From: Escherichia coli
GTDB taxonomy: Bacteria > Pseudomonadota > Gammaproteobacteria > Enterobacterales > Enterobacteriaceae
Strand: one strand, 5' to 3'
Length of the DNA: 64,000 nucleotides
Assembly (NCBI RefSeq): GCF_003790525.1
Contig: NZ_CP033635.1
Below the pieces are notes generated by a model that saw nothing but the letters and a program-made list of their open reading frames with translations, made no database searches and had not been told where the DNA came from. Both the position numbers and the translations under genes were made by a program. This document shows, one piece after another, positions 10,424 to 51,353 of this stretch; positions within the stretch are counted from its first letter, which is position 1, and each line of letters starts with the position of its first letter.

Positions 10424-11849
10424 TAATGCCAGTCAGTTAAGCAACTGACTGGCTCTTTTTCGGGGCTGTGGGGTATTTCCAGGGCCTCTCCTTTACCACT
10501 CTCGGGAAGGCCCTTTCCCTTCTTGTCGGTAATTTCACAAGTTGTCCCATACTTGCAAGATCGCGCATCAGCTCCGGTATACGTCCCGGTGAAGCGCCCT
10601 GCAATGTCATCAGCATTCTCATCACCATTCCACATGATTCTGAGAAACTCAGTTGATTCGGCCAGTAACCTTTCAGATGTTCCGCCATTTTAATCATCTG
10701 ATATCTCACCAGATTATAAGCCAGTAAGACACCCCACAGCTCTTGCTCCACAAGCTCCGGTTTTTTACTTCTCAGCGTCAGCCTGCTCAGTTGCATCGTC
10801 TGTTTTATCTCCCTGTATCCCAGTTCGATTTCCCAGCGATGACTGTACAGATCCGCCATTTCTCCTCCGGGGAAGCGCATGGCGTCCGTCATCGACGTCA
10901 GCAGATGGCAGACTTTTCCTTTGCGCGTCACGGTCAGCAGGCGGGCTGTCACTTCATTTCCCAGTCCCGGCCACTTTTTTCGTGCCTGCGGGCTGGTTTT
11001 CAGCTTCACCAGATGATCGCCTTTACCCAGTTTTCTGATCTCTTCATATTGCGCTCCCTTTCTGAGAGGTATCATCCAGTGGCGGTGTTCTCCCGCCAGG
11101 CTCCAGGCATTTAACAGTCCCAGTGAGTAATAACCTTTATCCATTAACGTCAGAGTGTTATCGCCGGTTTGTTCTATAAGTTGCTCAGCAAGCTCATTTT
11201 CGCTGTTCTTCATCGTGCCGAAGGCTGCAGCCGTCAGCAGATGGCTGGTCAGTTCCATCTGGCAGACCATTTTGACCTGCGGGTAGAGCGCCGGGTTCCC
11301 GGCATGTGTCTGGCGGGGGAAGGCTGCATCGTTCTCTGGTGTATCCGGTGTGCGCCAGAACACACCATCGATGGCCAGCAGGGTCAGGCCGCACCAGTGC
11401 GGATGCGGCGTGGCGTTATGCCAGAGCTGCGCTGTTTTCGTGAACACGCGGCGGACAGCCTCACTTCCCAGGCGCTGGCGGGCCTGAATAACGGCACTGG
11501 GGGCAACGAAGGGGCGATTGCCCGGCAGCATGATGTCCAGGCGATTCACAATCTGGTGAAGAGGTTCTTTACGCTCAAGCGCCATGCCAACAATACACCA
11601 GACCATCATTTCGAGGGGAAGACGGCGCTTGCGTAGCGTTACAGTACCTGATTCGGCAAGGCAACGAGAGATGAGTTCGGGGTCGAGGTAATCCCCCAGA
11701 GAAGTCAGTGGGTTACGCAGAGAATCGTAACGGGATACCAGATCAAGAGCCTGTCCAATGTGCATAAAAAAATCCGGAAACAAGTGAGCGTTTCCGGATT
11801 CTTACACAGCCACTGGATCGGTCAACTGATCCTTAACTGATCGGCATTA
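10424..11849 (-). mobile_element. Insertion sequence IS4, 1426 bp, complete
   Basis: Terminal inverted repeats TAATGCCAGTCAGTTAAG (left) and TAATGCCGATCAGTTAAG (right, reverse complement), 16 of 18 matching; encodes the full-length transposase; flanked by a 12-bp direct repeat. Confidence 0.92.
10437..11765 (-). CDS. insG: IS4 transposase (DDE family)
   Basis: 442 aa from [26 protein letters not shown]..., the IS4 InsG sequence as I recall it; no frameshift or stop. Confidence 0.92.
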
Positions 11850-11883: not shown

Positions 11884-12393
11884 TTACTTCTTGATGCGGA
11901 TAACCGGGGTTTCACCCACAGTCACGCTACCGGACAGTTTGATCAGTTCTTTGATTTCGTCCATGTTGGAGATAACAACCGGAGTCAGGGTAGACTTGGC
12001 TTTCTCTTCCAGCAGCGGCAGATCGAATTCAATCACGGTATCGCCAACTTTCACGCGCTGACCTTCTTCAGCAATACGCTTGAAGCCTTCGCCTTTCAGT
12101 TCAACGGTGTCGATACCGAAGTGGACGAACAGTTCAACGCCGCTATCAGATTCGATAGAGAACGCGTGGTTGGTTTCAAAGATTTTACCAATGGTGCCGT
12201 CTACAGGCGCGACCATTTTGTTACCCGTTGGTTTGATAGCAATGCCATCACCAACGATTTTTTCCGCAAAAACGACATCCGGCACGTCTTCGATATTGAC
12301 GATCTCGCCAGAGAGCGGAGCAATGATCTCAATAGTTCCGGTATCCTTCTTGTCGTCGGAAACCAGAGATTTCAGTTTATCGAACAAACCCAT
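11884..12393 (-). CDS. crr: PTS glucose-specific enzyme IIA
   Basis: 169-aa ORF ([39 protein letters not shown]...). Confidence 0.97.
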
Positions 12394-12433
12394 GATCTTC
12401 TCCTAAGCAGTAAATTGGGCCGCATCTCGTGGA

Positions 12434-14161
12434 TTAGCAGATTGTTTTTTCTTCAATGAACTTGTTAACCAGCGTCATTAACTCGTCCGTTGTCGGTTGA
12501 GCAAGAGCCTGCTCTGCTAACACCTTCGCATCTTCGAAGTTCGTGTTACGGATAATCTTCTTAATGCGCGGGATAGAAATGGCGCTCATAGAGAATTCGT
12601 CCAGACCCATCCCCAGCAACAGAAGTGTAGCACGTTCATCGCCAGCAAGCTCACCACACATGCCAGTCCATTTGCCTTCAGCATGAGAAGCATCAATAAC
12701 TTGCTTGATCAAGTTCAGCACGGACGGTGACATTGGCTGGTAAAGGTGTGAAATCATATCATTACCACGGTCAACTGCCAGAGTGTACTGCGTTAAATCA
12801 TTGGTGCCGATACTAAAGAAATCAACTTCTTTGGCTAAATGACGTGCAATTGTTGCGGCAGCCGGTGTTTCCACCATTACGCCGATTTCAATTGACTCGT
12901 CAAACGCTTTACCTTCGTCGCGCAGTTCCTGTTTGTAGATTTCGATCTCTTTGCGCAGTGCACGCACTTCTTCAACAGAGATGATCATCGGGAACATAAT
13001 GCGCAATTTACCGAAAGCCGAGGCACGCAGGATAGCGCGGAGCTGATCGCGCAGGATCTCTTTACGATCCATCGCGATACGGATAGCGCGCCAGCCGAGG
13101 AACGGGTTCTCTTCTTTCGGGAAGTTCATGTATGGCAGCTCTTTGTCGCCGCCGATGTCCATGGTACGAACGATAACCGCCTGCGAGCCACACGCTTCAG
13201 CCACTGCTTTGTAAGCAGCAAACTGTTCTTCTTCAGTGGGCAGCGCGTCGCGGTCCATGAACAGGAACTCAGTACGATACAGACCAACGCCTTCAGCGCC
13301 GTTACGCTCTGCACCTTCAACGTCACGAACCGTACCAATGTTAGCGCACACTTCTACCTGGTGACCGTCCAGCGTAATAGCTGGCAGATCTTTCAGTTTA
13401 GCAAGCTCTGCTTTTTCAGAAGCCACTTGCTCCTGAACAGCGCGCATTTTATCAATAACTTCGTTGGTTGGATTGACGTAAACCTGATTATTTACGGCAT
13501 CCAGAATCAGATAGTCGTCATTTTTCACCTGAGAGGTGACGCTACCGGTACCCACGATAGCAGGCAGTTCCAGAGAACGCGCCATGATAGAGGTGTGGGA
13601 AGTACGGCCACCCGCGTCGGTGATGAAACCCAGCACCTTCTTCAGGTTCAGCTGTGCGGTTTCGGACGGCGTCAGGTCAGCGGCAACCAGAATGACTTCA
13701 TCCTGAATGGCGCTCAGGTCGATAATCTTCAGGCCCAGGATGTTGCGCAGCAGGCGCTTACCGATATCACGTACGTCAGCCGCACGTTCTTTCAGGTATT
13801 CATCATCCAGCTCTTCCAGGGCAGAAGCCTGACCTTCGATAACTTCATGAGCAGCTGCGTCAGCTGTCATGTGCTTATCTTTAATCAGGGCTATGATTTC
13901 CTGCTCCAGCTCCTCATCTTCGAGCAGCATAATATGCCCTTCAAAGATGGCTTCTTTTTCTTCACCGAACGTTTCACCAGCTTTCGTTTTGATCGTTTCC
14001 AGCTGGGCTGATGCCTTGGCACGACCGCTCAGAAAACGTTCAACTTCCTGATCAACCTGGTCGGCAGAAATTTTTTTCCGGTCAATGACAATTTCGTCTT
14101 CTTTCAGAAGCAGAGCTTTACCGAAAGCGATACCCGGGGATGCTAAAATGCCTGAAATCAT
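12434..14161 (-). CDS. ptsI: PTS enzyme I (phosphoenolpyruvate-protein phosphotransferase)
   Basis: 575-aa ORF ([35 protein letters not shown]...). Confidence 0.97.
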
Positions 14162-14205
14162 AACCCTACCTTACTTGTGACTGATTTTTAAAAGAACCCG
14201 GGAAA

Positions 14206-14463
14206 TTACTCGAGTTCCGCCATCAGTTTAACCAGATGTTCAACCGCTTTCTGCTCGTCTTCGCCTTCTGCGGAGATAGTCACAACGGTACCTTGAGTCA
14301 GGCCCAGAGTCTGCAGTTTAAACAGGCTTTTCGCGCTGGCGCTTTTGCCGTTGGAAGTCACAGTAATTTCAGAAGTGAAGCCCTTAGCTTCTTTTACAAA
14401 CTGGGCAGCAGGGCGGGTGTGCAGACCGTTCGGAGCGGTAATGGTAACTTCTTGCTGGAACAT
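14206..14463 (-). CDS. ptsH: PTS phosphocarrier protein HPr
   Basis: 85-aa [32 protein letters not shown]... with active-site His15 context. Confidence 0.97.
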
Positions 14464-28939: not shown

Positions 28940-29356
28940 CCTGACCAGGTGTTTGCTGTTGTTCAATGTATTGGCGGATGACGGATATTGGCGCACCTCC
29001 GCAGCTACTGGCAAAATAGCCAGGACTCCACAAAACGCCTTTGTAGTAATACCTGACTGCAATATCTGGTCGATCTCGTCGCAGTCACCTACCCGATACG
29101 CCTTTGAGGCTGTTTACCAGACTGGATATCGCCAGTTTGGGAGGATAGTTAATTAACAAATGGACGTGATCTGGTTCGCCATCCATTTCAACCAGTTCAG
29201 CTTCAAAATCAGCACATACATTTGAAAAGTAAGTGCGTAGTTTTTCTGTCGCGTCATGGTCAAAAATCTGGCGTCGGTATTTGGGACAAAGACCAGGTGA
29301 ACATGCATCAGGAAAACACAATGCCTTCCACGCCGGATATCGGTTTCTTTTTTCAC
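28940..29356 (-). pseudogene. tnpA: IS200/IS605-family HUH (Y1) transposase TnpA, inactivated by a frameshift and an in-frame TGA; extent approximate
   Basis: N-terminus ...RHCVFLMHVHLVFVP is in one frame and ...PKYRRQIF...EMDGEPDHVHLLINYPPKLAISSLVNSLKGVSGR in another (1-bp shift at about 29285); TGA at 29082-29084, after which the same frame continues LWSPGYFASSCGGAPISVIRQYIEQQQ (catalytic Tyr region). Confidence 0.7.
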
Positions 29357-29378
29357 AGACCAAAATATAATTTGACCT

Positions 29379-30589
29379 GTGAAACGACTACAGGCATTTA
29401 AATTCCAGTTAAGACCCGGTGGTCAACAGGAGCATGAAATGAGGCGCTTCGCAGGCGCATGTCGTTTCGTTTTCAATCGTGCTCTGGCGCTTCAGAATGA
29501 GAATCATGAGGCCGGTAATAAATACATCCCTTACGGGAAAATGGCTTCCTGGCTGGTTGAGTGGAAAAACGCCACTGGAACGCAATGGCTTAAAGATTCT
29601 CCCTCACAGCCATTGCAACAGTCACTGAAAGACCTTGAGCGGGCTTACAAAAACTTCTTCCAGAAGCGGGCTGCTTTTCCCCGATTCAAAAAGCGGGGAC
29701 AGAATGATGCATTCCGCTACCCGCAGGGCGTTAAGCTCGATCAGGAAAACAGCCGTATTTTTCTGCCGAAACTGGGCTGGATGCGCTACCGGAACAGCCG
29801 TCAGGTCACGGGTGTTGTGAAAAATGTCACGGTCAGCCAGTCCTGCGGTAAGTGGTACATCAGTATTCAGACAGAAAGTGAAGTATCAACTCCGGTTCAC
29901 CCTTCAGCATCAATGGTCGGGCTGGATGCCGGCATGGCTGAACTTGCCACGCTGTCAGATGGGGCACAGTCTTTGAGCCTGTAAACAGTTTTCAGAAAAA
30001 CCAGAAGACGCTGGCGAGACTTCAGCGACAGTTAAGCCGCAAGGTCAAATTCAGCAATAACTGGAAGAAGCAGAAACGCAAAATACAGCGACTGCATTCC
30101 CGTATCGCAAATATCCGCAGGGACTACCTTCACAAAGTCACAACGACCGTCAGCAAAAACCACGCAATGATAGTCATTGAGGATTTGAAGGTCAGCAACA
30201 TGTCAAAGTCAGCAGCGGGTACGGTCAGCCAGCCGGGGCGCAATGTCCGGGCAAAATCAGGTTTAAACCGTTCGATACTGAATCAGGGCTGGTATGAAAT
30301 GCGCCGCCAGCTTGAGTACAAGCAGCTCTGGCGTGGCGGTCAGGTGCTTGCTGTTCCGCCAGCGTACACAAGCCAGCGTTGCGCGTGCTGTGGTCATACA
30401 GCGAAAGAAAATCGCCTGTCACAAAGTAAATTCAGATTCCAGGTATGTGGATATACAGCGAACGCCGATGTAAACGGCGCTCGTAACATTTTAGCGGCGG
30501 GGCACGCCGTTCTTGCCTGTGGAGAGATGGTGCAGTCAGGCCGCCCGTTGAAGCAGGAACCCACCGAAATGATTCAGGCGACAGCCTGA
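29379..30589 (+). pseudogene. tnpB: IS200/IS605-family TnpB (RuvC-like, OrfB_IS605 plus zinc ribbon), split by a single frameshift near 29970
   Basis: ORF 29379..29984 ends ...GLDAGMAELATLSDGAQSLSL; the next frame continues FEPVNSFQKNQKTLARLQRQLSRK... into ORF 30167..30589 (...IVIEDLKVSNM...CACCGH...C..C...NGARNIL); joined length about 403 aa. Confidence 0.8.
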
Positions 30590-39949: not shown

Positions 39950-40167
39950 ATCCTTCCTGTCAAATCGGGAGATAACTCTCCCGATAATCTTTTAAATCAT
40001 ACAGTTAATTCAATTTTTCTTTGTGTCACCTCACAAGGCCGACCTGCGTCACACTTCCGTACAGCGGGATTAATTCTCCAGTAAATGCATTATTTGTCTG
40101 GTAACGGCGATTTGTTTTGCACGTTCATAATTTCACTCGTCAACTATCACTGAACGAGGAATTAACG

Positions 40168-40494
40168 ATGAGTAAGAAACTGATTGCTTTATGTGCCTGC
40201 CCGATGGGTCTGGCTCACACCTTTATGGCAGCCCAGGCGCTGGAAGAAGCGGCGGTGGAAGCAGGCTATGAAGTGAAAATTGAAACTCAGGGCGCGGACG
40301 GCATCCAGAATCGCCTGACCGCGCAGGATATCGCCGAAGCGACCATCATCATCCACTCCGTGGCGGTTACCCCGGAAGATAACGAACGTTTCGAATCACG
40401 CGACGTTTATGAAATCACTTTGCAGGACGCAATTAAAAACGCTGCGGGCATCATCAAAGAAATCGAAGAGATGATTGCCTCTGAACAACAGTAA
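40168..40494 (+). CDS. fryB: PTS fructose-like enzyme IIB component
   Basis: 108 aa from MSKKLIALCACPMGLAHTFMAAQALEEAA... (phosphorylatable Cys in CACPMG). Confidence 0.9.
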   Translation: MSKKLIALCACPMGLAHTFMAAQALEEAAVEAGYEVKIETQGADGIQNRLTAQDIAEATIIIHSVAVTPEDNERFESRDVYEITLQDAIKNAAGIIKEIEEMIASEQQ

Positions 40495-40515
40495 TATTCG
40501 ACAGGGATAATTGTT

Positions 40516-41763
40516 ATGGCCATTAAAAAACGCAGTGCAACCGTTGTGCCTGGCGCATCCGGTGCGGCAGCGGCAGTTAAGAATCCGCAGGCCTCTAAAA
40601 CCAGCTTCTGGGGTGAACTCCCGCAGCATGTGATGTCAGGGATTTCACGCATGGTGCCGACCTTAATTATGGGCGGTGTGATCCTCGCTTTCAGCCAGCT
40701 GATTGCTTATAGCTGGCTTAAAATTCCTGCTGATATCGGCATCATGGATGCTCTTAATAGCGGGAAATTCTCCGGTTTCGACCTCTCCTTACTGAAATTT
40801 GCCTGGTTGTCGCAGTCCTTCGGCGGCGTGTTGTTTGGTTTTGCCATTCCGATGTTTGCTGCATTTGTGGCGAACTCTATCGGTGGCAAACTGGCGTTCC
40901 CGGCTGGTTTTATCGGTGGGTTGATGTCTACCCAGCCGACGCAACTGCTGAACTTCGATCCCAGCACTATGCAATGGGCGACCTCTTCGCCGGTACCGTC
41001 CACCTTCATTGGTGCCCTGATTATTTCTATCGTTGCTGGTTACCTTGTGAAGTGGATGAACCAGAAAATCCAGTTACCGGATTTCCTGTTAGCGTTCAAA
41101 ACCACATTTTTGCTACCGATTCTTTCCGCCATTTTTGTCATGCTGGCGATGTACTACGTCATCACCCCCTTTGGTGGCTGGATCAACGGCGGTATCCGTA
41201 CCGTGCTGACTGCCGCAGGTGAGAAGGGCGCGCTGATGTACGCGATGGGGATCGCCGCGGCGACAGCAATCGACCTTGGTGGCCCGATCAACAAAGCAGC
41301 TGGTTTCGTTGCCTTCAGCTTTACCACTGACCACGTATTACCGGTTACCGCGCGTTCCATCGCTATTGTTATTCCGCCGATTGGTCTGGGTCTGGCGACC
41401 ATTATCGACCGCCGTTTAACCGGCAAACGTCTGTTCAGTGCTCAGCTTTATCCGCAGGGTAAAACCGCCATGTTCCTGGCGTTTATGGGGATCAGTGAAG
41501 GTGCGATTCCGTTTGCACTGGAAAGTCCCATCACCGCCATTCCGTCCTATATGGTTGGCGCGATTGTCGGCTCAACCGCTGCAGTCTGGCTGGGCGCAGT
41601 GCAATGGTTCCCGGAGTCCGCTATCTGGGCATGGCCGCTGGTCACTAACCTCGGCGTCTATATGGCGGGGATCGCGCTGGGAGCAGTCATTACTGCGCTG
41701 ATGGTGGTGTTCCTGCGTCTGATGATGTTCCGCAAAGGCAAATTGTTAATCGATAGCCTGTAA
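40516..41763 (+). CDS. fryC: PTS fructose-like enzyme IIC component
   Basis: 415-aa polytopic membrane protein. Confidence 0.9.
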
Positions 41764-41777
41764 GAAGGACAATCCTG

Positions 41778-42863
41778 ATGACATTACTCGCTTCGCTGCG
41801 CGACTGGCTTAAGGCGCAACAACTGGATGCGGTGCTTCTCTCCTCACGGCAGAACAAACAGCCGCATCTGGGGATCTCCACCGGATCAGGCTATGTGCTG
41901 ATTAGCCGTGAAAGTGCGCACATTCTGGTGGACTCGCGCTATTACGCGGATGTAGAAGCCCGCACGCAAGGCTACCAGCTGCATTTGCTTGACGCGACGC
42001 ACACGCTTGCAACCATCGCCAGGCAAATCATTGCCGATGAGCAGTTAAAAACGCTCGGTTTTGAAGGCCAGCAGGTGAGTTGGGAAACCGCGCACCGCTG
42101 GCAGTCTGAACTCAATGCGAAACTGGTAAGCGCCACGCCGGATGTGCTGCGGCAAATCAAAACGCCAGAGGAGGTGGAGAAAATCCGCCTCGCCTGTGGG
42201 ATTGCCGATCGCGGTGCAGAGCATATTCGCCGCTTTATTCAGGCGGGAATGAGCGAGCGCGAGATAGCCGCTGAACTGGAGTGGTTTATGCGCCAGCAGG
42301 GCGCAGAAAAAGCCTCTTTCGATACCATTGTCGCCAGCGGCTGGCGTGGGGCGCTGCCGCACGGCAAAGCCAGCGACAAGATTGTTGCAGCGGGCGAGTT
42401 TGTCACTCTTGATTTTGGTGCGCTGTATCAGGGCTACTGCTCTGATATGACGCGCACCTTGCTGGTGAATGGCGAAGGGGTGAGCGCCGAATCTCACCCG
42501 CTGTTTGACGTCTATCAGATTGTTTTGCAGGCACAGCTCGCGGCAATCTCCGCGATTCGCCCCGGCGTGCGCTGCCAGCAGGTTGACGACGCCGCGCGCC
42601 GGGTGATTACCGAGGCTGGATTTGGCGACTATTTCGGTCATAACACCGGTCATGCTATCGGCATTGAAGTCCATGAAGGTCCGCGTTTTTCACCGCGGGA
42701 CACCACGACGCTACAGCCAGGCATGTTACTGACCGTGGAGCCGGGGATTTATTTGCCAGGGCAAGGGGGCGTGCGCATCGAAGATGTTGTGCTGGTCACC
42801 CCGCAAGGCGCAGAAGTGCTCTACGCCATGCCGAAAACAGTGTTGCTCACGGGAGAGGCATAA
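41778..42863 (+). CDS. ypdF: Xaa-Pro aminopeptidase (M24 family)
   Basis: 361 aa with M24 metal-binding motifs ([13 protein letters not shown]). Confidence 0.9.
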
Positions 42864-43900
42864 TGGATTTATCGCTATTAAAAGCGTTGAGCGAGGCAGA
42901 TGCGATCGCCTCCTCGGAACAGGAAGTACGGCAGATCCTGCTGGAAGAAGCGGATCGCCTGCAAAAAGAAGTGCGATTTGACGGCCTGGGATCGGTGCTG
43001 ATCCGCCTCAATGAATCGACAGGTCCGAAGGTGATGATCTGTGCACATATGGATGAAGTGGGATTTATGGTGCGCAGCATCTCCCGCGAAGGGGCGATTG
43101 ATGTGCTGCCAGTTGGCAACGTGCGCATGGCTGCCCGACAGCTTCAGCCGGTGCGCATCACCACCCGTGAAGAGTGCAAAATACCTGGCCTGCTTGACGG
43201 CGACCGGCAGGGGAATGACGTCAGCACCATGCGCGTGGACATTGGCGCGCGCTCGTGTGACGAAGTGATGCAGGCGGGAATTCGTCCAGGCGATCGCGTC
43301 ACCTTCGATACCACTTTTCAGGTTCTCCCTCACCAGCGGGTGATGGGGAAAGCCTTTGATGACCGCCTCGGTTGCTACCTGCTGGTGACGTTACTACGTG
43401 AGCTGCACGACGCCGAACTGCCTGCGGAAGTATGGCTGGTGGCAAGTTCCAGCGAAGAGGTGGGATTACGCGGCGGGCAAACTGCCACCCGCGCGGTGTC
43501 GCCGGATGTCGCCATTGTGCTTGATACCGCCTGCTGGGCGAAAAACTTTGATTATGGCGCGGCTAACCATCGTCAGATTGGTAACGGGCCGATGCTGGTG
43601 TTAAGCGATAAATCGCTGATTGCGCCGCCAAAACTTACCGCGTGGATTGAAACCGTGGCGGCAGAAATTGGCGTGCCGTTACAGGCAGATATGTTCAGCA
43701 ACGGCGGCACGGACGGTGGAGCGGTGCATTTAACCGGCACTGGCGTACCCACAGTGGTGATGGGGCCAGCCACCCGCCACGGACATTGCGCGGCATCGAT
43801 TGCCGATTGTCGCGACATTTTGCAGATGCAGCAACTTTTATCTGCCCTTATTCAACGTCTTACGCGTGAGACGGTTGTTCAACTGACGGATTTCAGATGA
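42863..43900 (+). CDS. ypdE: M42-family aminopeptidase
   Basis: 345-aa ORF; start overlaps the ypdF stop. Confidence 0.9.
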
Positions 43901-43924
43901 TCTCCTGATTAACCCGGAGCGGTT

Positions 43925-46420
43925 ATGCTAACGATTCAATTTCTCTGTCCTCTGCCTAACGGTCTGCATGCTCGTCCGGCGTGGGAACTTAAAGAACAGT
44001 GCAGCCAGTGGCAAAGCGAAATCACCTTCATCAACCATCGCCAGAACGCAAAGGCAGATGCGAAAAGCTCGCTGGCGCTGATTGGCACCGGCACCCTATT
44101 TAATGACAGTTGCAGCCTGAACATTAGCGGCAGCGATGAAGAGCAGGCGCGGCGCGTGCTGGAAGAGTACATCCAGGTGCGCTTTATCGACAGCGACAGC
44201 GTCCAGCCAACGCAGGCAGAACTGACAGCGCATCCGCTGCCGCGTTCATTAAGCCGTCTGAACCCGGATTTACTGTACGGCAATGTGCTGGCAAGCGGCG
44301 TCGGCGTGGGTACGCTGACCCTGTTACAGAGCGACAGCCTCGACAGTTATCGGGCCATCCCGGCCAGTGCGCAAGACTCCACCCGGCTGGAGCACAGCCT
44401 GGCAACGCTTGCCGAGCAACTGAACCAGCAACTGCGCGAGCGTGACGGCGAAAGCAAAACTATCCTCAGCGCCCATTTGTCGCTGATCCAGGATGATGAA
44501 TTTGCAGGCAATATCCGTCGCCTGATGGCAGAACAGCATCAGGGGCTGGGGGCGGCGATCATCAGCAATATGGAGCAGGTTTGCGCCAAACTATCTGCTT
44601 CTGCCAGCGATTATCTGCGCGAGCGGGTCAGCGACATTCGCGATATCAGCGAACAGTTACTGCATATCACCTGGCCGGAACTGAAACCGCGCAACAATCT
44701 GGTGCTGGAAAAACCGACTATTCTGGTGGCTGAAGATTTAACCCCAAGCCAGTTTTTGAGCCTCGATTTAAAAAATCTTGCGGGCATGATTCTGGAGAAA
44801 ACCGGGCGCACCTCGCATACCCTGATCCTGGCCCGCGCTTCGGCGATCCCGGTACTGAGCGGCCTGCCGCTGGATGCGATTGCCCGTTATGCCGGGCAAC
44901 CTGCAGTGCTTGACGCCCAGTGCGGCGTGCTGGCGATTAACCCGAATGACGCGGTGAGCGGTTATTATCAGGTCGCGCAGACGCTGGCGGATAAACGCCA
45001 AAAACAACAGGCGCAGGCGGCCGCGCAGCTGGCCTATTCCCGTGATAACAAGCGTATTGATATTGCGGCGAATATCGGCACCGCTCTGGAAGCGCCAGGC
45101 GCGTTTGCCAACGGCGCGGAAGGTGTCGGGCTGTTTCGTACCGAAATGCTCTATATGGATCGCGACAGCGCGCCGGACGAGCAGGAGCAATTTGAAGCCT
45201 ACCAGCAGGTGCTACTGGCGGCGGGCGACAAGCCGATTATCTTCCGCACGATGGACATCGGCGGCGATAAAAGCATTCCTTACCTCAACATTCCCCAGGA
45301 AGAGAACCCGTTCCTCGGCTATCGCGCGGTACGTATTTACCCGGAATTTGCTGGCCTGTTCCGCACTCAACTGCGGGCGATTTTGCGTGCTGCCTGTTTC
45401 GGCAACGCCCAGTTGATGATCCCGATGGTTCACAGCCTCGATCAGATCTTATGGGTGAAGGGCGAGATCCAAAAAGCGATCGTTGAGCTTAAGCGCGATT
45501 GCCTGCGTCATGCAGAGACGATTACGCTGGGTATCATGGTGGAAGTGCCGTCGGTGTGCTACATCATCGATCACTTCTGCGATGAGGTCGATTTCTTCAG
45601 TATCGGCTCCAACGATATGACCCAGTATCTGTATGCGGTCGATCGTAATAACCCGCGCGTATCGCCGCTGTATAACCCGATTACGCCATCGTTCCTGCGC
45701 ATGTTGCAGCAGATTGTTACCACTGCGCATCAGCGGGGTAAATGGGTAGGTATTTGCGGTGAACTGGGCGGTGAAAGCCGTTATCTTCCGCTACTGCTTG
45801 GGCTGGGCCTGGACGAGCTGAGTATGAGTAGCCCGCGCATTCCGGCGGTGAAAAGCCAGCTTCGTCAACTGGATAGCGAGGCGTGTCGGGAACTGGCGCG
45901 TCAGGCATGTGAATGCCGCAGTGCGCAGGAAATTGAAGCGTTACTCACCGCCTTTACGCCGGAAGAAGACGTTCGCCCACTGCTGGCGCTGGAGAATATC
46001 TTTGTTGATCAGGCTTTTAGCAATAAAGAGCAGGCGATCCAGTTCCTGTGCGGTAACCTCGGCGTTAACGGGCGCACTGAACATCCGTTCGAGCTGGAAG
46101 AGGATGTCTGGCAGCGGGAAGAGATTGTTACCACCGGCGTTGGTTTTGGCGTAGCGATCCCGCACACCAAATCTCAGTGGATCCGTCATTCCAGTATCAG
46201 CATTGCCCGGCTGGTGAAACCGGTTGACTGGCAGTCAGAAATGGGCGAAGTCGAACTGGTGATCATGCTGACACTGGGCGCTAACGAAGGGATGAATCAT
46301 GTGAAAGTCTTCTCGCAGCTGGCGCGTAAACTGGTGAATAAAAACTTCCGCCAGTCGCTGTTCGCCGCGCAAGATGCGCAAAGCATCCTGACGCTGCTGG
46401 AAACGGAATTAACCTTCTGA
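43925..46420 (+). CDS. fryA: Multiphosphoryl transfer protein (HPr-like, enzyme I-like and EIIA-like domains fused)
   Basis: 831 aa; N-terminal HPr-like GLHARPA, central EI domain, C-terminal fructose-type EIIA. Confidence 0.92.
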   Translation: MLTIQFLCPLPNGLHARPAWELKEQCSQWQSEITFINHRQNAKADAKSSLALIGTGTLFNDSCSLNISGSDEEQARRVLEEYIQVRFIDSDSVQPTQAELTAHPLPRSLSRLNPDLLYGNVLASGVGVGTLTLLQSDSLDSYRAIPASAQDSTRLEHSLATLAEQLNQQLRERDGESKTILSAHLSLIQDDEFAGNIRRLMAEQHQGLGAAIISNMEQVCAKLSASASDYLRERVSDIRDISEQLLHITWPELKPRNNLVLEKPTILVAEDLTPSQFLSLDLKNLAGMILEKTGRTSHTLILARASAIPVLSGLPLDAIARYAGQPAVLDAQCGVLAINPNDAVSGYYQVAQTLADKRQKQQAQAAAQLAYSRDNKRIDIAANIGTALEAPGAFANGAEGVGLFRTEMLYMDRDSAPDEQEQFEAYQQVLLAAGDKPIIFRTMDIGGDKSIPYLNIPQEENPFLGYRAVRIYPEFAGLFRTQLRAILRAACFGNAQLMIPMVHSLDQILWVKGEIQKAIVELKRDCLRHAETITLGIMVEVPSVCYIIDHFCDEVDFFSIGSNDMTQYLYAVDRNNPRVSPLYNPITPSFLRMLQQIVTTAHQRGKWVGICGELGGESRYLPLLLGLGLDELSMSSPRIPAVKSQLRQLDSEACRELARQACECRSAQEIEALLTAFTPEEDVRPLLALENIFVDQAFSNKEQAIQFLCGNLGVNGRTEHPFELEEDVWQREEIVTTGVGFGVAIPHTKSQWIRHSSISIARLVKPVDWQSEMGEVELVIMLTLGANEGMNHVKVFSQLARKLVNKNFRQSLFAAQDAQSILTLLETELTF

Positions 46421-46422
46421 CG

Positions 46423-47280
46423 TTAGCCCTGAAAACGGGCGCTGTACTCTCCCGGCGTCAGGCCAAACTGACGCCGGAAAATGCGACAAAAATAGTCGCT
46501 GTCCGGAAAACCGCAACGCTGTGCCACTTCATGAATCGACAGATGATATTTCTGCAAAATCATCCTTGCCTTTGCCATTCGTACCCAGCGAACATACTCG
46601 ATAAAACGCATTGTTCCATGCTGAGCAAACAGTTTTGACAGATGATTGGGCGTGATATTAAAAAACTGAGCCACGCTCTCGCGGGTGAGCTGCTGGGCAT
46701 AATTATCCTGAACCCAGTTACAAATGCTGTGATAGAGAAAATCGCCGCGCGGCTGCGAATTGCCCGGTGGCATATTCACCACGTTGCGGCAAAGATGCAG
46801 CAAACTTAACACCAGTGGCTGAATGATATTCTGCTCCAGCGGCGAACGGCTAAGATGGGTGAGGGCGGTAAGCATCGCTTCACCTTCGCCGCGTTGCAGG
46901 CTGGGAAGCTGGATCTGGCGGGCAGGATGCAACAACGACGTGGTGCGGCTATCGTAAAACGATAACCCAAGCCAGGTCGGTGCGAACACCAGGCTTAACA
47001 GCATCACCGGTTTGTTGTTGACCGGTAAATTAGCCGCGCGTGCCGGAATAAACAGCATTTCTCCTTCCACCATACGTTGCTGCTTTGCTTCCAGCAGATT
47101 GCCGTATTCGCCGCGTAGCACGATATCCAGACGGGGAAAATCAATACATAAACTGCCCACTGGCAATGAGGCAGGCTGGCTGGCAAACCAGACGCGCCCC
47201 AGTAGTTGCGGGTTAAGCACCAGGCCGCTGAACAGATCGGCGAAAAATTGTTGATCGGCGGGCAAGCCTGGTGCTTTCAT
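46423..47280 (-). CDS. ypdC: AraC-family transcriptional regulator
   Basis: 285 aa with C-terminal AraC HTH. Confidence 0.9.
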   Translation of the reverse strand: MKAPGLPADQQFFADLFSGLVLNPQLLGRVWFASQPASLPVGSLCIDFPRLDIVLRGEYGNLLEAKQQRMVEGEMLFIPARAANLPVNNKPVMLLSLVFAPTWLGLSFYDSRTTSLLHPARQIQLPSLQRGEGEAMLTALTHLSRSPLEQNIIQPLVLSLLHLCRNVVNMPPGNSQPRGDFLYHSICNWVQDNYAQQLTRESVAQFFNITPNHLSKLFAQHGTMRFIEYVRWVRMAKARMILQKYHLSIHEVAQRCGFPDSDYFCRIFRRQFGLTPGEYSARFQG

Positions 47281-47292
47281 GAAAGTTCCCGA

Positions 47293-48026
47293 TTAAAGAT
47301 GCATTAACTGGCGGAATTCTTTAACTTTGCTGCGGCTGACCGGCACTTCAAAATCCAGATCTTTCAGCCGCAGAATGTAGGTGTTATTAAACCACGGTTC
47401 GATCTCGCGGATTTTGTTCAGATTGACACAAAATGAGCGATGGCAGCGGAAAAATGCGACGGCGGCAGCTTGCTGCAAAACTCGGTAATGTTCATCGGCA
47501 TTACGTAGGATTCACGCCGCGTATAGACAAAGGTCATTTTCTCATGCGCTTCGGCGTAATAGATATCGTTAATTGGCGTGACGATGATTCGCTCATCTTT
47601 CACCAGATTAATGGTGTCATTCTCACGCGTTACCGTCGTGGCAGGCGTACTGCTGGTCTGCTGTTGTTGCCAGGCTGCTTCCAGTTTTTGTAGCATCCCG
47701 GTAATGCGTGACTCCTGATACGGTTTGAGAATGTAGTCAAACGCCTCCAGTTCAAACGCTTCTACCGCATGTTCTTTCCATGCGGTGATAAACACAATAA
47801 ACGGTTTATGGGCGAACTGGCTGATGTTTTGCGCCAGCAACACGCCATCCAGCGACGGAATATTGATATCCAGAAAAATGGCGTCGACGCGGTTATGCTG
47901 CAAAAACTTCAACACGTCCAGACCGTCGTCAAAGGTGCCGACAATCTCCATCTGGCTGTGCTCTTTAATTAGCCAGCTCAGTTCCTGTTGTGCCAGGAAT
48001 TCGTCTTCAACAATGATGACTTTCAC
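47293..48026 (-). pseudogene. ypdB: LytTR-family response regulator YpdB, interrupted by a 1-bp frameshift in a homopolymer run
   Basis: REC domain plus most of LytTR in ORF 47418..48044 (ends ...KLPPSHFSAAIAHFVSI); the LytTR C-terminus FFRCHRSFCVNLNKIREIEPW... is in the overlapping ORF 47293..47478; frames meet at the T5 run 47450-47454 (minus strand); start may be the GTG at 48026 or the ATG at 48044. Confidence 0.8.
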
Positions 48027-48040
48027 AATATCACTCCGGC

Positions 48041-49738
48041 TCAAAGCAATAACGTAGCCTGTGAGGCGACTGGGGTGCGTTGGTTAGGAATGTAAAACGC
48101 AATTTCCGTTCCTGGTTCCAGGCGGCGGATATGCAGCCCCTCGCCATACAATAACTTCACGCGATGATGGACATTCAGCAGACCAATTTTATTGCCCGGC
48201 ATTTCGTTCGCTTCGACCCGCTCAATGACTTTTGGATCGATGCCGTGCCCGGTGTCTCGCACCGCAATGCGTACCCGATTACCGCACTCTGCAACGCTGA
48301 TGGTGACAACGCCTTTACCTTTGCAAGGCTGAATACCGTGGACAATGGCATTCTCCACCAACGGCTGGATCAGCAGGCTGGGAATGCAGCAATTCACCTC
48401 TTCATCAATATCATAGATAACCGTCAGCTTGTCGCCAAAGCGGGCCTGCTCAATGGCAATATAGTCTTTAATTTGATACAGCTCTTTTTTGATATCGATT
48501 TGCTCATCGTCTTTTAATTCAATGTTATAGCGCAGATAACGCGACAGATTAAAGATCAGCTGGCGAGCGGTATCCGGATTCAGACGGATTGACGATGAAA
48601 TAGCGTTCAGAGCGTTAAACAGAAAATGGGGATTAATTTTGCTTTGCAGCGCGCGAAGCTCTGCCTTATTTGCCATTTCACGTAACTGCTCGGCACGCGA
48701 AACCTCCAGTTGCGTGGAGATGATTTGCGACAGACCGACCGCCATTTCCTGTAATGATGACGTAATCTGATGCGCGTGGCAGTAGTAAATTTTCAGTGTT
48801 CCGGTCACAACGCCTTTCTCCCACAATGGGATCACCAGCATGGAATGAATCTCTGGTGTGCGGTGGGCTTCATCATTGTTTTTAATGATGATTTTTCCGT
48901 AATTCATCGCCTGTCGGGTAGTCGGGCTAATGAAGTCATCGCCATTCTGATAGTTGTGTTCACCCACGCCGACATAGGCCAGCACATGATCAGTATTAGT
49001 AATCGCCACCGCATCGGCGTGAATGTCATCGCGGATAATTTCGCAGACCTTGCGTAATGACTCGCTATTGACATGGCGAAACAGCGGCAGCGTTTTGTTG
49101 GCAATATCCAGCGCCAGCTTGGCCTGCCGCGCGGCGCTGGCCTCTTTTTCGCCCTCAACGCTTTGCACCAGCAGCACAATAAAGCCGATACAGACGCTAC
49201 CGAGGATCATTGGAATCCCGATTTTAGAGACGATATCGATCCCCAACGCGGTAGTTGGTGCCCAGACAATCACCAGAATCATGGTCAACGTTTCACATAA
49301 CATGCCGCCGAGAATACCGACGCGCCAGCGCTGTGCTTTAGGGATTTTCAGGTTGATCCAGCCCGATATACAACCCGCCAGAATGCTGGTGATAAAGCAG
49401 GGGATCGCCGTCACGCCGCCGATATCAATTAAATAACGGTGAATACCTGCGATCACGCCGGTAATAATGCCTACCCACGGGCCAAACAGAATTCCGCCTG
49501 ACATCACCGCGATAATACGTACGTTCACCAGCGAGCCTTCTACGGGAACGCCGGACCAGGTGCTGAACAGGGCGAACAGCGAGAAAATGGCGGTAACGGC
49601 GAGCAGCTCTTTCGGTGAGTGTGCCGACTTGTGCAACAGTTCGCGAAACAGGCGGATACGGATGAGAAAGAACAGGCAGATAAGCATTAACGCTGCCCGA
49701 TCGAAGACCGCCAGCAGCATGTTGAATATTTCGTGCAC
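48041..49738 (-). CDS. ypdA: Sensor histidine kinase of the YpdA/YpdB two-component system (5TM-LytS/GAF/HisKA)
   Basis: 565 aa with membrane N-terminus and C-terminal HATPase motifs. Confidence 0.92.
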
Positions 49739-50114: not shown

Positions 50115-51353
50115 ATGGCTGACACTCGCCCTGAACGTCGCTTTACGCGTATTGATCGTCTCCCGCCCTACGTTTTTAATATTACCGCTGAACTGAAAAT
50201 GGCTGCGCGTCGGCGCGGCGAAGATATTATCGATTTCAGTATGGGTAACCCGGACGGTGCGACTCCGCCGCATATCGTCGAAAAATTATGTACGGTGGCC
50301 CAGCGCCCGGACACGCATGGTTACTCCACGTCGCGCGGCATTCCGCGGTTACGTCGCGCCATTTCCCGCTGGTATCAGGATCGCTACGGCGTTGAGATCG
50401 ACCCGGAATCAGAAGCTATCGTCACCATTGGTTCGAAAGAGGGACTGGCGCATCTGATGCTGGCGACGCTGGATCATGGTGACACTGTACTGGTGCCTAA
50501 TCCAAGCTACCCGATTCATATTTACGGCGCGGTGATTGCCGGGGCGCAGGTACGCTCAGTGCCGCTGGTGGAAGGTGTCGATTTCTTCAACGAACTGGAA
50601 CGCGCCATTCGCGAAAGTTATCCGAAACCGAAGATGATGATCCTCGGCTTCCCGTCGAACCCAACCGCGCAATGCGTGGAGCTGGAATTCTTTGAGAAGG
50701 TTGTGGCGCTGGCGAAACGCTACGATGTGCTGGTGGTCCATGACCTGGCCTATGCCGATATCGTCTACGATGGCTGGAAAGCGCCGTCAATCATGCAGGT
50801 GCCAGGTGCACGCGATGTGGCGGTCGAGTTCTTTACGCTGTCGAAAAGTTACAACATGGCGGGCTGGCGTATCGGCTTTATGGTCGGTAACAAAACGCTG
50901 GTCAGCGCGTTGGCACGTATTAAAAGCTATCACGATTACGGCACCTTTACGCCGTTGCAGGTGGCAGCGATTGCGGCGCTGGAGGGCGATCAACAGTGCG
51001 TGCGCGACATTGCTGAACAGTACAAACGCCGCCGTGATGTACTGGTAAAAGGGCTGCATGAAGCGGGCTGGATGGTCGAAATGCCGAAGGCTTCGATGTA
51101 TGTCTGGGCGAAAATCCCGGAACCATATGCGGCCATGGGTTCACTGGAATTTGCCAAGAAGCTGCTTAACGAAGCGAAGGTCTGTGTCTCTCCAGGGATT
51201 GGCTTTGGCGACTACGGCGACACCCATGTTCGCTTTGCACTGATTGAAAACCGCGATCGTATTCGCCAGGCGATTCGTGGAATTAAAGCGATGTTCCGTG
51301 CCGACGGTTTACTACCCGCCAGCAGCAAACATATTCACGAAAACGCGGAATAA
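50115..51353 (+). CDS. alaC: Glutamate-pyruvate aminotransferase (PLP-dependent)
   Basis: 412 aa from [23 protein letters not shown]..., class I aminotransferase with [10 protein letters not shown] lysine motif. Confidence 0.95.

Follow-up and report, generated by a model that had tools for sequence, protein, structure and literature searches.

We analyzed a 64,000-nucleotide (nt) stretch of Escherichia coli DNA (hereinafter the window) and found that its positions 40168-49738 hold the ordinary, conserved fryBC-ypdFE-fryA and ypdC module beside the pyruvate-sensing ypdAB genes, in which a complete private phosphotransferase system (PTS) is interleaved with two aminopeptidases. The overall explanation toward which we lean is that this module is transcribed from a promoter driven by the AraC-family protein YpdC and by CRP, that it takes up a conjugate of a sugar with an amino acid or peptide, and that the YpdA/YpdB pair is an unrelated neighbor. 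The window sequence itself adds nothing new, its genes in this region being already known; it is the linkage of ypdC to the operon, a conserved promoter block upstream of fryB, and a PTS-M42-M24 gene cluster recurring across phyla that make the question of function more testable. Few E. coli PTS systems still lack a substrate, with fry, frv and sgc among them, and why M42 peptidase genes recur in these three has never been explained.

Gene content and integrity of the fry locus

All eight genes placed in this region by a preliminary description of the window were recovered at the same positions from the table of open reading frames (ORFs), with five on the + strand converging on three on the - strand:

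fryB, 40168..40494, + strand: PTS IIB component, fructose type (PF02302, 71 bits; TIGR00829, 92 bits, cutoff 76.85)
fryC, 40516..41763, + strand: PTS IIC membrane permease (PF02378, 53 bits, cutoff 30.7)
ypdF, 41778..42863, + strand: M24B Xaa-Pro/Met aminopeptidase (PF00557 and PF01321; NF007310 equivalog, 811 bits, cutoff 393)
ypdE, 42863..43900, + strand: M42 (TET-type) aminopeptidase (PF05343, 286 bits; NF007421 equivalog, 680 bits, cutoff 412)
fryA, 43925..46420, + strand: fused HPr-EI-IIA(Fru) multiphosphoryl transfer protein (five Pfam domains; TIGR01417, 501 bits; TIGR00848, 142 bits)
ypdC, 46423..47280, - strand: AraC-family regulator, convergent with fryA (HTH_18, 74 bits)
ypdB, 47293..48026, - strand: LytTR response regulator of the pyruvate-sensing pair, with its frame disrupted in the window and ending at 47418
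ypdA, 48041..49738, - strand: LytS-type histidine kinase (pyruvate sensor), intact (5TM-5TMR_LYT, GAF, His_kinase and HATPase_c in Pfam)

The E. coli SMS-3-5 chromosome (NC_010498.1), our RefSeq reference, has the order fryB, fryC, ypdF, ypdE, 'ptsP' (= fryA), ypdC, ypdB and ypdA between glk and alaC, and alignment of the whole 64,000-base window to it gave 0 mismatches and 1 gap. The ORF table, the SMS-3-5 annotation and Pfam thus agree on the gene order, on a complete private PTS (IIB, IIC and an HPr-EI-IIA fusion) with two aminopeptidases interleaved, and on a convergent AraC gene followed by a LytS/LytTR pair on the opposite strand, all as the preliminary description had it, and we regard the identity and integrity of the genes as named as practically certain. 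The corresponding E. coli K-12 locus (fryBC-ypdFE-fryA, b2387-b2383; ypdABC, b2380-b2382) has the same genes, order, strands and lengths, the sole difference being a 1-nt deletion in the ypdB of the window. The symbol ptsP usually denotes EI-Ntr, the enzyme I (EI) of the nitrogen PTS; its assignment to fryA (43925-46420) by PGAP/RefSeq is misleading, as the protein is an HPr-EI-IIA(Fru) fusion by Pfam.

Consecutive genes of the operon are separated by 21, 14, -1 and 24 nt, with the stop codon of ypdF overlapping the start of ypdE. FryA comprises an HPr domain (6-84), three EI domains (119-650) and an EIIA_2 domain (687-826), and retains all of its phosphoryl-transfer motifs, namely His15 (GLHAR), His298 (GRTSH), Cys611 (CGE) and His747 (AIPH), while the phospho-cysteine of FryB is Cys11 in the N-terminal motif CPMGLAHT. 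NCBIfam groups FryB, FryC and the IIA domain of FryA with fructose-type PTS models, and FryC scores 157.3 bits against the fructose-specific TIGR01427, just below the cutoff of 157.55. The predicted relay would be self-sufficient, running from phosphoenolpyruvate to His298 of the FryA EI, His15 of the FryA HPr, His747 of the FryA IIA, Cys11 of FryB, and finally the FryC permease. YpdF combines Creatinase_N and Peptidase_M24 domains, and YpdE has the Peptidase_M42 fold; in alignments spanning Enterobacterales, Firmicutes and E. coli paralogs, the metal ligands of both (D212, D223, H292, E321 and E335 in YpdF; H62, D166, E198, E199, D221 and H308 in YpdE) are invariant. Solved structures exist for both (5CNX, 'Aminopeptidase YpdF'; 1YLO, the Shigella YpdE orthologue), and by their sequences the two are cytoplasmic di-metal aminopeptidases with complete active sites. 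Zheng et al. are said to have found in 2005 that YpdE is a broad aminopeptidase and YpdF an X-Pro/Met aminopeptidase. That work is cited for the activity of YpdE in a later paper (PMC3511314).

YpdC, a probable regulator, accompanies the fry operon

To follow the operon across genomes, YpdE was sought by peptide patterns in one genome per species (GTDB), which yielded 78 loci from an incomplete sampling, with the best 80 of 219 matches kept; synteny in these loci was mapped by tblastn. Among the 31 Enterobacterales species with fryA in the DNA so mapped, ypdC lies beside the operon in 29, and ypdAB in only 12, all of them members of Escherichia, Citrobacter or Pseudocitrobacter. The gap between fryA and ypdC is mostly 6-43 nt, widening to 111-1141 nt in Salmonella and Citrobacter and to 6.9 kb in one Citrobacter; in one metagenome-assembled genome (MAG) ypdC has been relocated upstream of fryB and is still adjacent. 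Salmonella arizonae and diarizonae keep fry-ypdC-alaC without ypdAB, and the module with ypdC is also found in Enterobacter, Pluralibacter, Superficieibacter, Buttiauxella and Hafnia. The six genes occupy two chromosomal sites, one flanked by glk and alaC in some genera, and another between dcuC-rna and a stretch coding for an alpha/beta-hydrolase, rnk, uspG and ahpFC in most Enterobacter-type genomes. Since ypdC travels with the fry operon and ypdAB does not, ypdAB appears to be the later neighbor.

The YpdA/YpdB system senses pyruvate and activates yhjX (PMC4847170, PMC5552118). A search for its published YpdB box pair GGCATTTCAT-N11-GGCATTTCAT (PMC4847170), with up to 3 mismatches, found none in the window, and single YpdB boxes occur in the window at chance frequency, with none at 40000-40167; control of the fry operon by YpdB was accordingly ruled out by the absence of its repeat from the window. 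In terms of the characterized YpdA/YpdB-yhjX system, the YpdA of the window is complete and residues 1-192 of its YpdB are identical to the reference, whereas the LytTR domain is truncated and no YpdB box lies near the fry operon. The preliminary description had set the operon beside the pyruvate-sensing regulators; that adjacency exists, but it is lineage-specific and, because ypdC rather than ypdAB co-travels with the operon and no YpdB box is found at the fry promoter, it is probably not functional. We infer that YpdA/YpdB, in coupling pyruvate to yhjX, is an unrelated neighbor.

The AlphaFold2 model of YpdC (mean predicted local distance difference test score 85.5) has a β-rich N-terminal domain followed by a C-terminal double helix-turn-helix, and a Foldseek search with it recovered the full-length regulators Rns, CsvR and ToxT (E ~1e-8) and the regulatory domain of RhaR (E 3e-3). 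As modeled, YpdC would resemble AraC-family proteins that respond to a ligand, in full length Rns, CsvR and ToxT and in the regulatory domain RhaR. On the combined evidence of synteny and the conserved promoter block described below, YpdC is likely to be the specific regulator of the fry operon, and it is YpdC, rather than YpdAB, that should be tested in this role. The stop codons of fryA and ypdC are convergent and lie 2 nt apart, and a pattern scan found no intrinsic terminator between the two genes; their convergent transcripts would overlap. An RNA fold at 46387-46462, more stable than its shuffled versions (z = -2.8), was not counted as a terminator as it has no U-tract.

A conserved promoter region upstream of fryB

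The roughly 220 nt preceding fryB were aligned for 13 sequences of 12 species that differ in their upstream neighbors, and the alignment delineated one conserved region with three features:

CRP-like site, AAGGCCGACCTGCGTCACACTT, 40035..40056, no strand assigned: right half TCACA (40049-40053) invariant; GA of the left half (40041-40042) at least 90% conserved
Conserved block of about 40 nt, TCCAGTAAATGCATTATTTGTCTGGTAAC with flanks (..ATTAATTCTCCAGTAAATGCATTATTTGTCTGGTAAC), 40067..40105, no strand assigned: invariant or near-invariant columns across genera
Probable -10 hexamer, CATAAT, 40126..40131, + strand: ATA.T invariant in the alignment; called from conservation only

The spacing of GA-N6-TCACA at 40041-40053 fits CRP, and fryB was independently reported as a new cAMP-CRP target by genomic SELEX (PMC3105977), with which a CRP site at 40035..40056, as read from the alignment, is consistent. 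CRP input to the fry operon is therefore probable in our judgment. One regulatory input to fryB, that of CRP, was already in print. The conserved block lies between the CRP-like site and the -10 hexamer and holds two similar units of about 13 nt, 20 nt apart and identical at 9 of 13 positions; it is a candidate binding region for an AraC-type activator, namely YpdC. No recognizable -35 element accompanies CATAAT, and a consensus scan gave no full sigma-70 match in the intergenic region upstream of fryB, for which reason a standard sigma-70 promoter was dropped. Transcription is predicted to start about 30 nt upstream of fryB, near 40138, from an activator-dependent promoter, at which YpdC bound to the conserved block (-35 to -70) would drive the operon with help from cAMP-CRP at about -92.5. 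Such an arrangement is reminiscent of araBAD-type promoters, where AraC half-sites abut the -35 and CRP binds further upstream: the block adjoins a -35 that is weak or lacking, the CRP-like site is centered some 92 nt before the predicted start, and an AraC-family gene is linked to the operon. It departs from araBAD in that the fry layout is predicted from an alignment and its repeat units are only 9/13 identical.

PTS-peptidase operons recur across phyla

The coupling of M42 peptidases to PTS genes is not confined to the fry operon. Two other cryptic PTS operons of E. coli K-12, frvABXR (FrvX) and sgcX-R (SgcX), also include an M42 gene. Like fry, frvABXR and sgcXBCQAER combine PTS IIA/IIB/IIC genes with an M42 gene; unlike fry, they have neither an M24 partner nor a private EI/HPr, and their regulators are FrvR and SgcR. 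YpdE is closer to M42 relatives from Firmicutes (about 43% identity) than to FrvX (35%) or SgcX (31.5%). All 13 of its closest non-enterobacterial relatives (41-45% identity) are encoded in a single conserved cluster of seven genes, found in Clostridioides difficile, Romboutsia, Terrisporobacter, Lactococcus, Latilactobacillus, Clostridium thermobutyricum, Massilimicrobiota and a Clostridiaceae MAG. The gene order is PRD + EIIA_2 regulator, M42, PTS IIA, IIB and IIC (lactose/cellobiose family), M24 and PatB-family C-S lyase, and the M24 protein is 34% identical to YpdF. Four more loci show the order PRD, IIA/IIB/IIC, M42, M42. In this cluster (e.g., Latilactobacillus sakei LT-13 LACBS_00568-00576; the C. 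difficile locus L038), as in fry, the nearest relatives of YpdE and YpdF are interleaved with a PTS permease; it differs from fry in its lactose/cellobiose-family PTS, the lack of a private EI/HPr, a regulator of the PRD instead of the AraC type, and the additional C-S lyase dependent on pyridoxal phosphate (PLP). A study of L. sakei MalY draws the same cluster without explaining it and characterizes the PLP enzyme as a racemase/β-lyase (PMC5845896). From the sequences, the PTS-peptidase coupling is real and recurrent. Since the peptidase pair is kept while the permease family is swapped, it can be argued that the enzymes act on what the PTS brings in, and the Firmicute PRD-M42-PTS-M24-PatB cluster offers a second, genetically tractable system for a shared substrate.

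In Peptostreptococcaceae (L038, 3239-7759; L039, L042, L045, L053), the Firmicute cluster is directly preceded by genes for a hexose/tagatose-6-P-type kinase, an AgaS-family sugar-phosphate isomerase/deaminase and a class II aldolase, so that the product there might be an amino sugar or a ketose phosphate; being confined to this family, the trio was ruled out as a general clue. AlaC (50115-51353) is a class I/II PLP aminotransferase encoded just past ypdA in Escherichia, Citrobacter and Salmonella, and shares its fold superfamily with PatB; its gene is not linked to the module in Enterobacter-type genomes, and, with 21.5% identity and adjacency in only some genera, its likeness to the Firmicute PatB (L038, 14238-15425) was judged a coincidence. 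In Lactococcus raffinolactis (L041, 11851-13340) only some 60% of the IIC gene of the cluster is matched and additional small ORFs come after it; the permease may be disrupted. A Candidatus Nanohaloarchaea contig (L056, 10001-12053) has convergent, overlapping M42 and M24 genes and no detectable PTS genes, so the M42-M24 pairing may have a PTS-independent rationale.

The operon is conserved and not decaying

A megablast search with 40168-49738 as the query found matches in 5,423 of 5,426 complete E. coli genomes, with at least 80% query coverage in 5,413, and the nucleotide identity of the region is 95-100% across at least 5,400 of the genomes. The top matches are annotated with the gene names expected for the locus. 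Pairwise dN/dS for the five fry genes and ypdC, computed against Citrobacter youngae, Salmonella arizonae and Enterobacter soli, ranges from 0.01 to 0.15, similar to glk and alaC; as dS is near saturation, these values are approximate. By their sequences, the fry genes belong to the E. coli core genome and evolve under purifying selection, and 'cryptic' in the case of this operon means unexpressed under laboratory conditions, not decaying.

A full-text search of the literature found no defined fry substrate, and, in line with the preliminary description, in which the substrate and the reason for the PTS-peptidase coupling were held to be unresolved, papers from 2017 and 2023 still treat the system as putative or unknown: one calls FryABC putative and of unknown substrate while reporting that an in-frame deletion of fryA improved survival in prolonged LB culture (PMC5364489), and a review lists FryB and FryC as 'fructose-like' (PMC10305011). 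Other reported effects are a 1.9-fold rise of ypdF and a 1.5-fold rise of fryA in a study of Cpx activation (PMC2731931), outcompetition of a ypdE deletion mutant of the uropathogenic strain UTI89 in the mouse bladder (competitive index 0.30; PMC8767336), and altered Caenorhabditis elegans aggregation behavior with a ypdF deletion in a screen (PMC12005443). The ypdE effect in mouse cystitis suggests that the substrate may be host-derived.

The notion that the operon is 'cryptic' because it is dead, a relic in decay that no longer functions, could draw on the lack of both a known growth phenotype and a known substrate, and on two loci in which tblastn returned broken genes: Citrobacter amalonaticus (L014, 11064-13546), with fryA in two overlapping pieces and ypdC missing, and Escherichia sp. 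MOD1-EC7003 (L035, 10001-10953), with ypdE split and shortened, each of which may reflect lineage decay or an assembly error. It is already contradicted by the intact catalytic residues, the low dN/dS, the presence of the operon in 5,413 of the 5,426 genomes, and the fitness effects of ypdE in mouse cystitis and of the fryA deletion in long LB culture, and we regard it as scarcely credible.

Proposed mechanism and its rivals

In Firmicutes, orthologs of the M42 and M24 enzymes likewise sit together within a PTS operon, one of another PTS family. The leading candidate for the PTS substrate is therefore a conjugate of a sugar (or polyol) with an amino acid or peptide, a proposal that we put forward tentatively. 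FryC and FryB would take up this conjugate, phosphorylating the sugar moiety, whereupon YpdE, with broad specificity, and YpdF, acting on X-Pro bonds, would trim the peptide part from the N-terminus. A more general version, which we rate as rather unlikely, has the fry and Firmicute modules together forming a route by which a PTS imports conjugates of sugars with amino acids or peptides and phosphorylates their sugar part, for example glycopeptides or glycated peptides derived from host or food glycoproteins; here the M42 and X-Pro-specific M24B enzymes would trim the peptide and the PatB-type β-lyase of Firmicutes would remove the last residue. If true, such conjugates would form a class of substrate that has been established for no PTS so far, and the M42 genes of frv and sgc would be explained as well.

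Several points weigh against this explanation, including its regulatory part. No glycosidase, deglycase or lyase that could release the sugar is present in the E. coli module, and no glycosidase or deglycase is conserved with either the enterobacterial or the Firmicute version. YpdE and YpdF reportedly cleave ordinary peptides in vitro, again by the 2005 account of Zheng et al. The genes flanking the operon in Enterobacterales, tried as substrate clues, turned out to be housekeeping genes that vary by genus (glk and alaC, or dcuC-rna and rnk-uspG-ahpCF). With PTS families differing between the phyla, the pattern could reflect repeated co-regulation rather than a shared substrate. On the regulatory side, the CRP-like site agrees with only 13 of 22 consensus positions, the transcription start is a predicted one, and YpdC gave no ChIP-exo peaks under the standard conditions tested, which the authors of that study explain by an inactive regulator (PMC8464067). 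The incomplete sampling of YpdE loci and the near-saturated dS noted above count on the same side.

The main rival is that the genes share nothing beyond their control: FryBC would take up some plain ketose or polyol, and the two peptidases would be general peptide scavengers that happen to be placed on the same starvation- or CRP-controlled promoter, with no chemical link between the substrates of the PTS and the peptidases. It would account for the cleavage of ordinary peptides in vitro reported for both enzymes, for the adjacent M42 and M24 genes without a PTS on the archaeal contig, for the many M42 genes in PTS-free tandems (Ruminococcus loci), and for the different PTS families of Enterobacterales and Firmicutes, and the CRP-type promoter suits a general carbon-starvation response. 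It sits less easily with the interleaving of the orthologous peptidase pair in a PTS operon in two phyla, seen in 13 of the 13 nearest relatives, with the retention in E. coli of three separate operons with an M42 gene among PTS genes, and with the packing of the fry genes for translational coupling, and we consider it somewhat unlikely. Alternatively, the main role of FryA/B/C might be not to feed carbon into metabolism but to detect a ligand and, in the manner of PTS components acting on PRD regulators, to phosphorylate the peptidases or YpdC and so control them. FryA does provide a private EI-HPr-IIA chain apart from PtsI and PtsH, and the Firmicute cluster is headed by a PRD + EIIA_2 regulator of a type normally phosphorylated by PTS proteins; against this, the IIC permease FryC is full-length and strongly constrained (dN/dS 0.03-0.11), and YpdC has neither a PRD nor any other known PTS-phosphorylated domain. 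Such a regulatory phosphorelay, which like the dead relic fits the data poorly, strikes us as improbable.

A one-base deletion in ypdB

The single gap between the window and NC_010498.1, which is their sole difference in 64 kb, is a 1-nt deletion in ypdB that shortens a run of six A to five at 47450-47454 (a T-run on the coding strand). The resulting YpdB is native through residue 192 and then reads SAAIAHFVSI before a stop, giving 202 amino acids versus the intact 244 in NC_010498.1; its receiver domain is present, its LytTR match covers only profile positions 2-48 of 98, and the C-terminal half of LytTR is lost. A 121-nt probe spanning the site matched 5,419 complete E. coli genomes, and the best matches listed (99.2%) all carry the extra base; a 24-mer for the deletion allele found 0 metagenome contigs, against 23 for a wild-type 25-mer control. 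A programmed frameshift was ruled out, as all the other sequences listed have the in-frame T6.

The preliminary description had attributed this frameshift to the strain. The deletion is indeed present in the window, but it cannot be called a property of the strain, as the SMS-3-5 record is intact and the genomes and metagenome contigs yielded no instance of it; it represents either slippage private to the clone that was sequenced or a homopolymer error left in the sequence, and not a lineage feature. A genuine loss of function, in which the YpdA/YpdB pyruvate response is silenced (no yhjX induction) and ypdC translation is left to read-through transcription, is possible, with single-base slippage being a common real mutation and the deletion both truncating the LytTR DNA-binding domain and sitting in a slippage-prone T6 run. 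Speaking against it are its standing as the only difference from the public SMS-3-5 chromosome, its absence among the matches in genomes and metagenome contigs, and the fact that homopolymer indels are a classic residual assembly error; we therefore give some preference to a sequence or assembly error. Until it is verified, the frameshift is unsuitable as a strain marker.

Other features of the window

An Rfam scan of the window at gathering thresholds gave only six tRNAs, none of them within 40-50 kb. In the RefSeq annotation, with coordinates converted to those of the window, the yfeD-gltX interval (28947-30589) holds a frameshifted IS200/IS605 tnpB (InsQ/TnpB) pseudogene together with an incomplete tnpA. 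The general PTS genes ptsH-ptsI-crr lie at 11884-14463 on the - strand, 26 kb from the private EI/HPr of fryA, and an IS4 transposase gene (10437-11783) directly follows crr, between it and pdxK.

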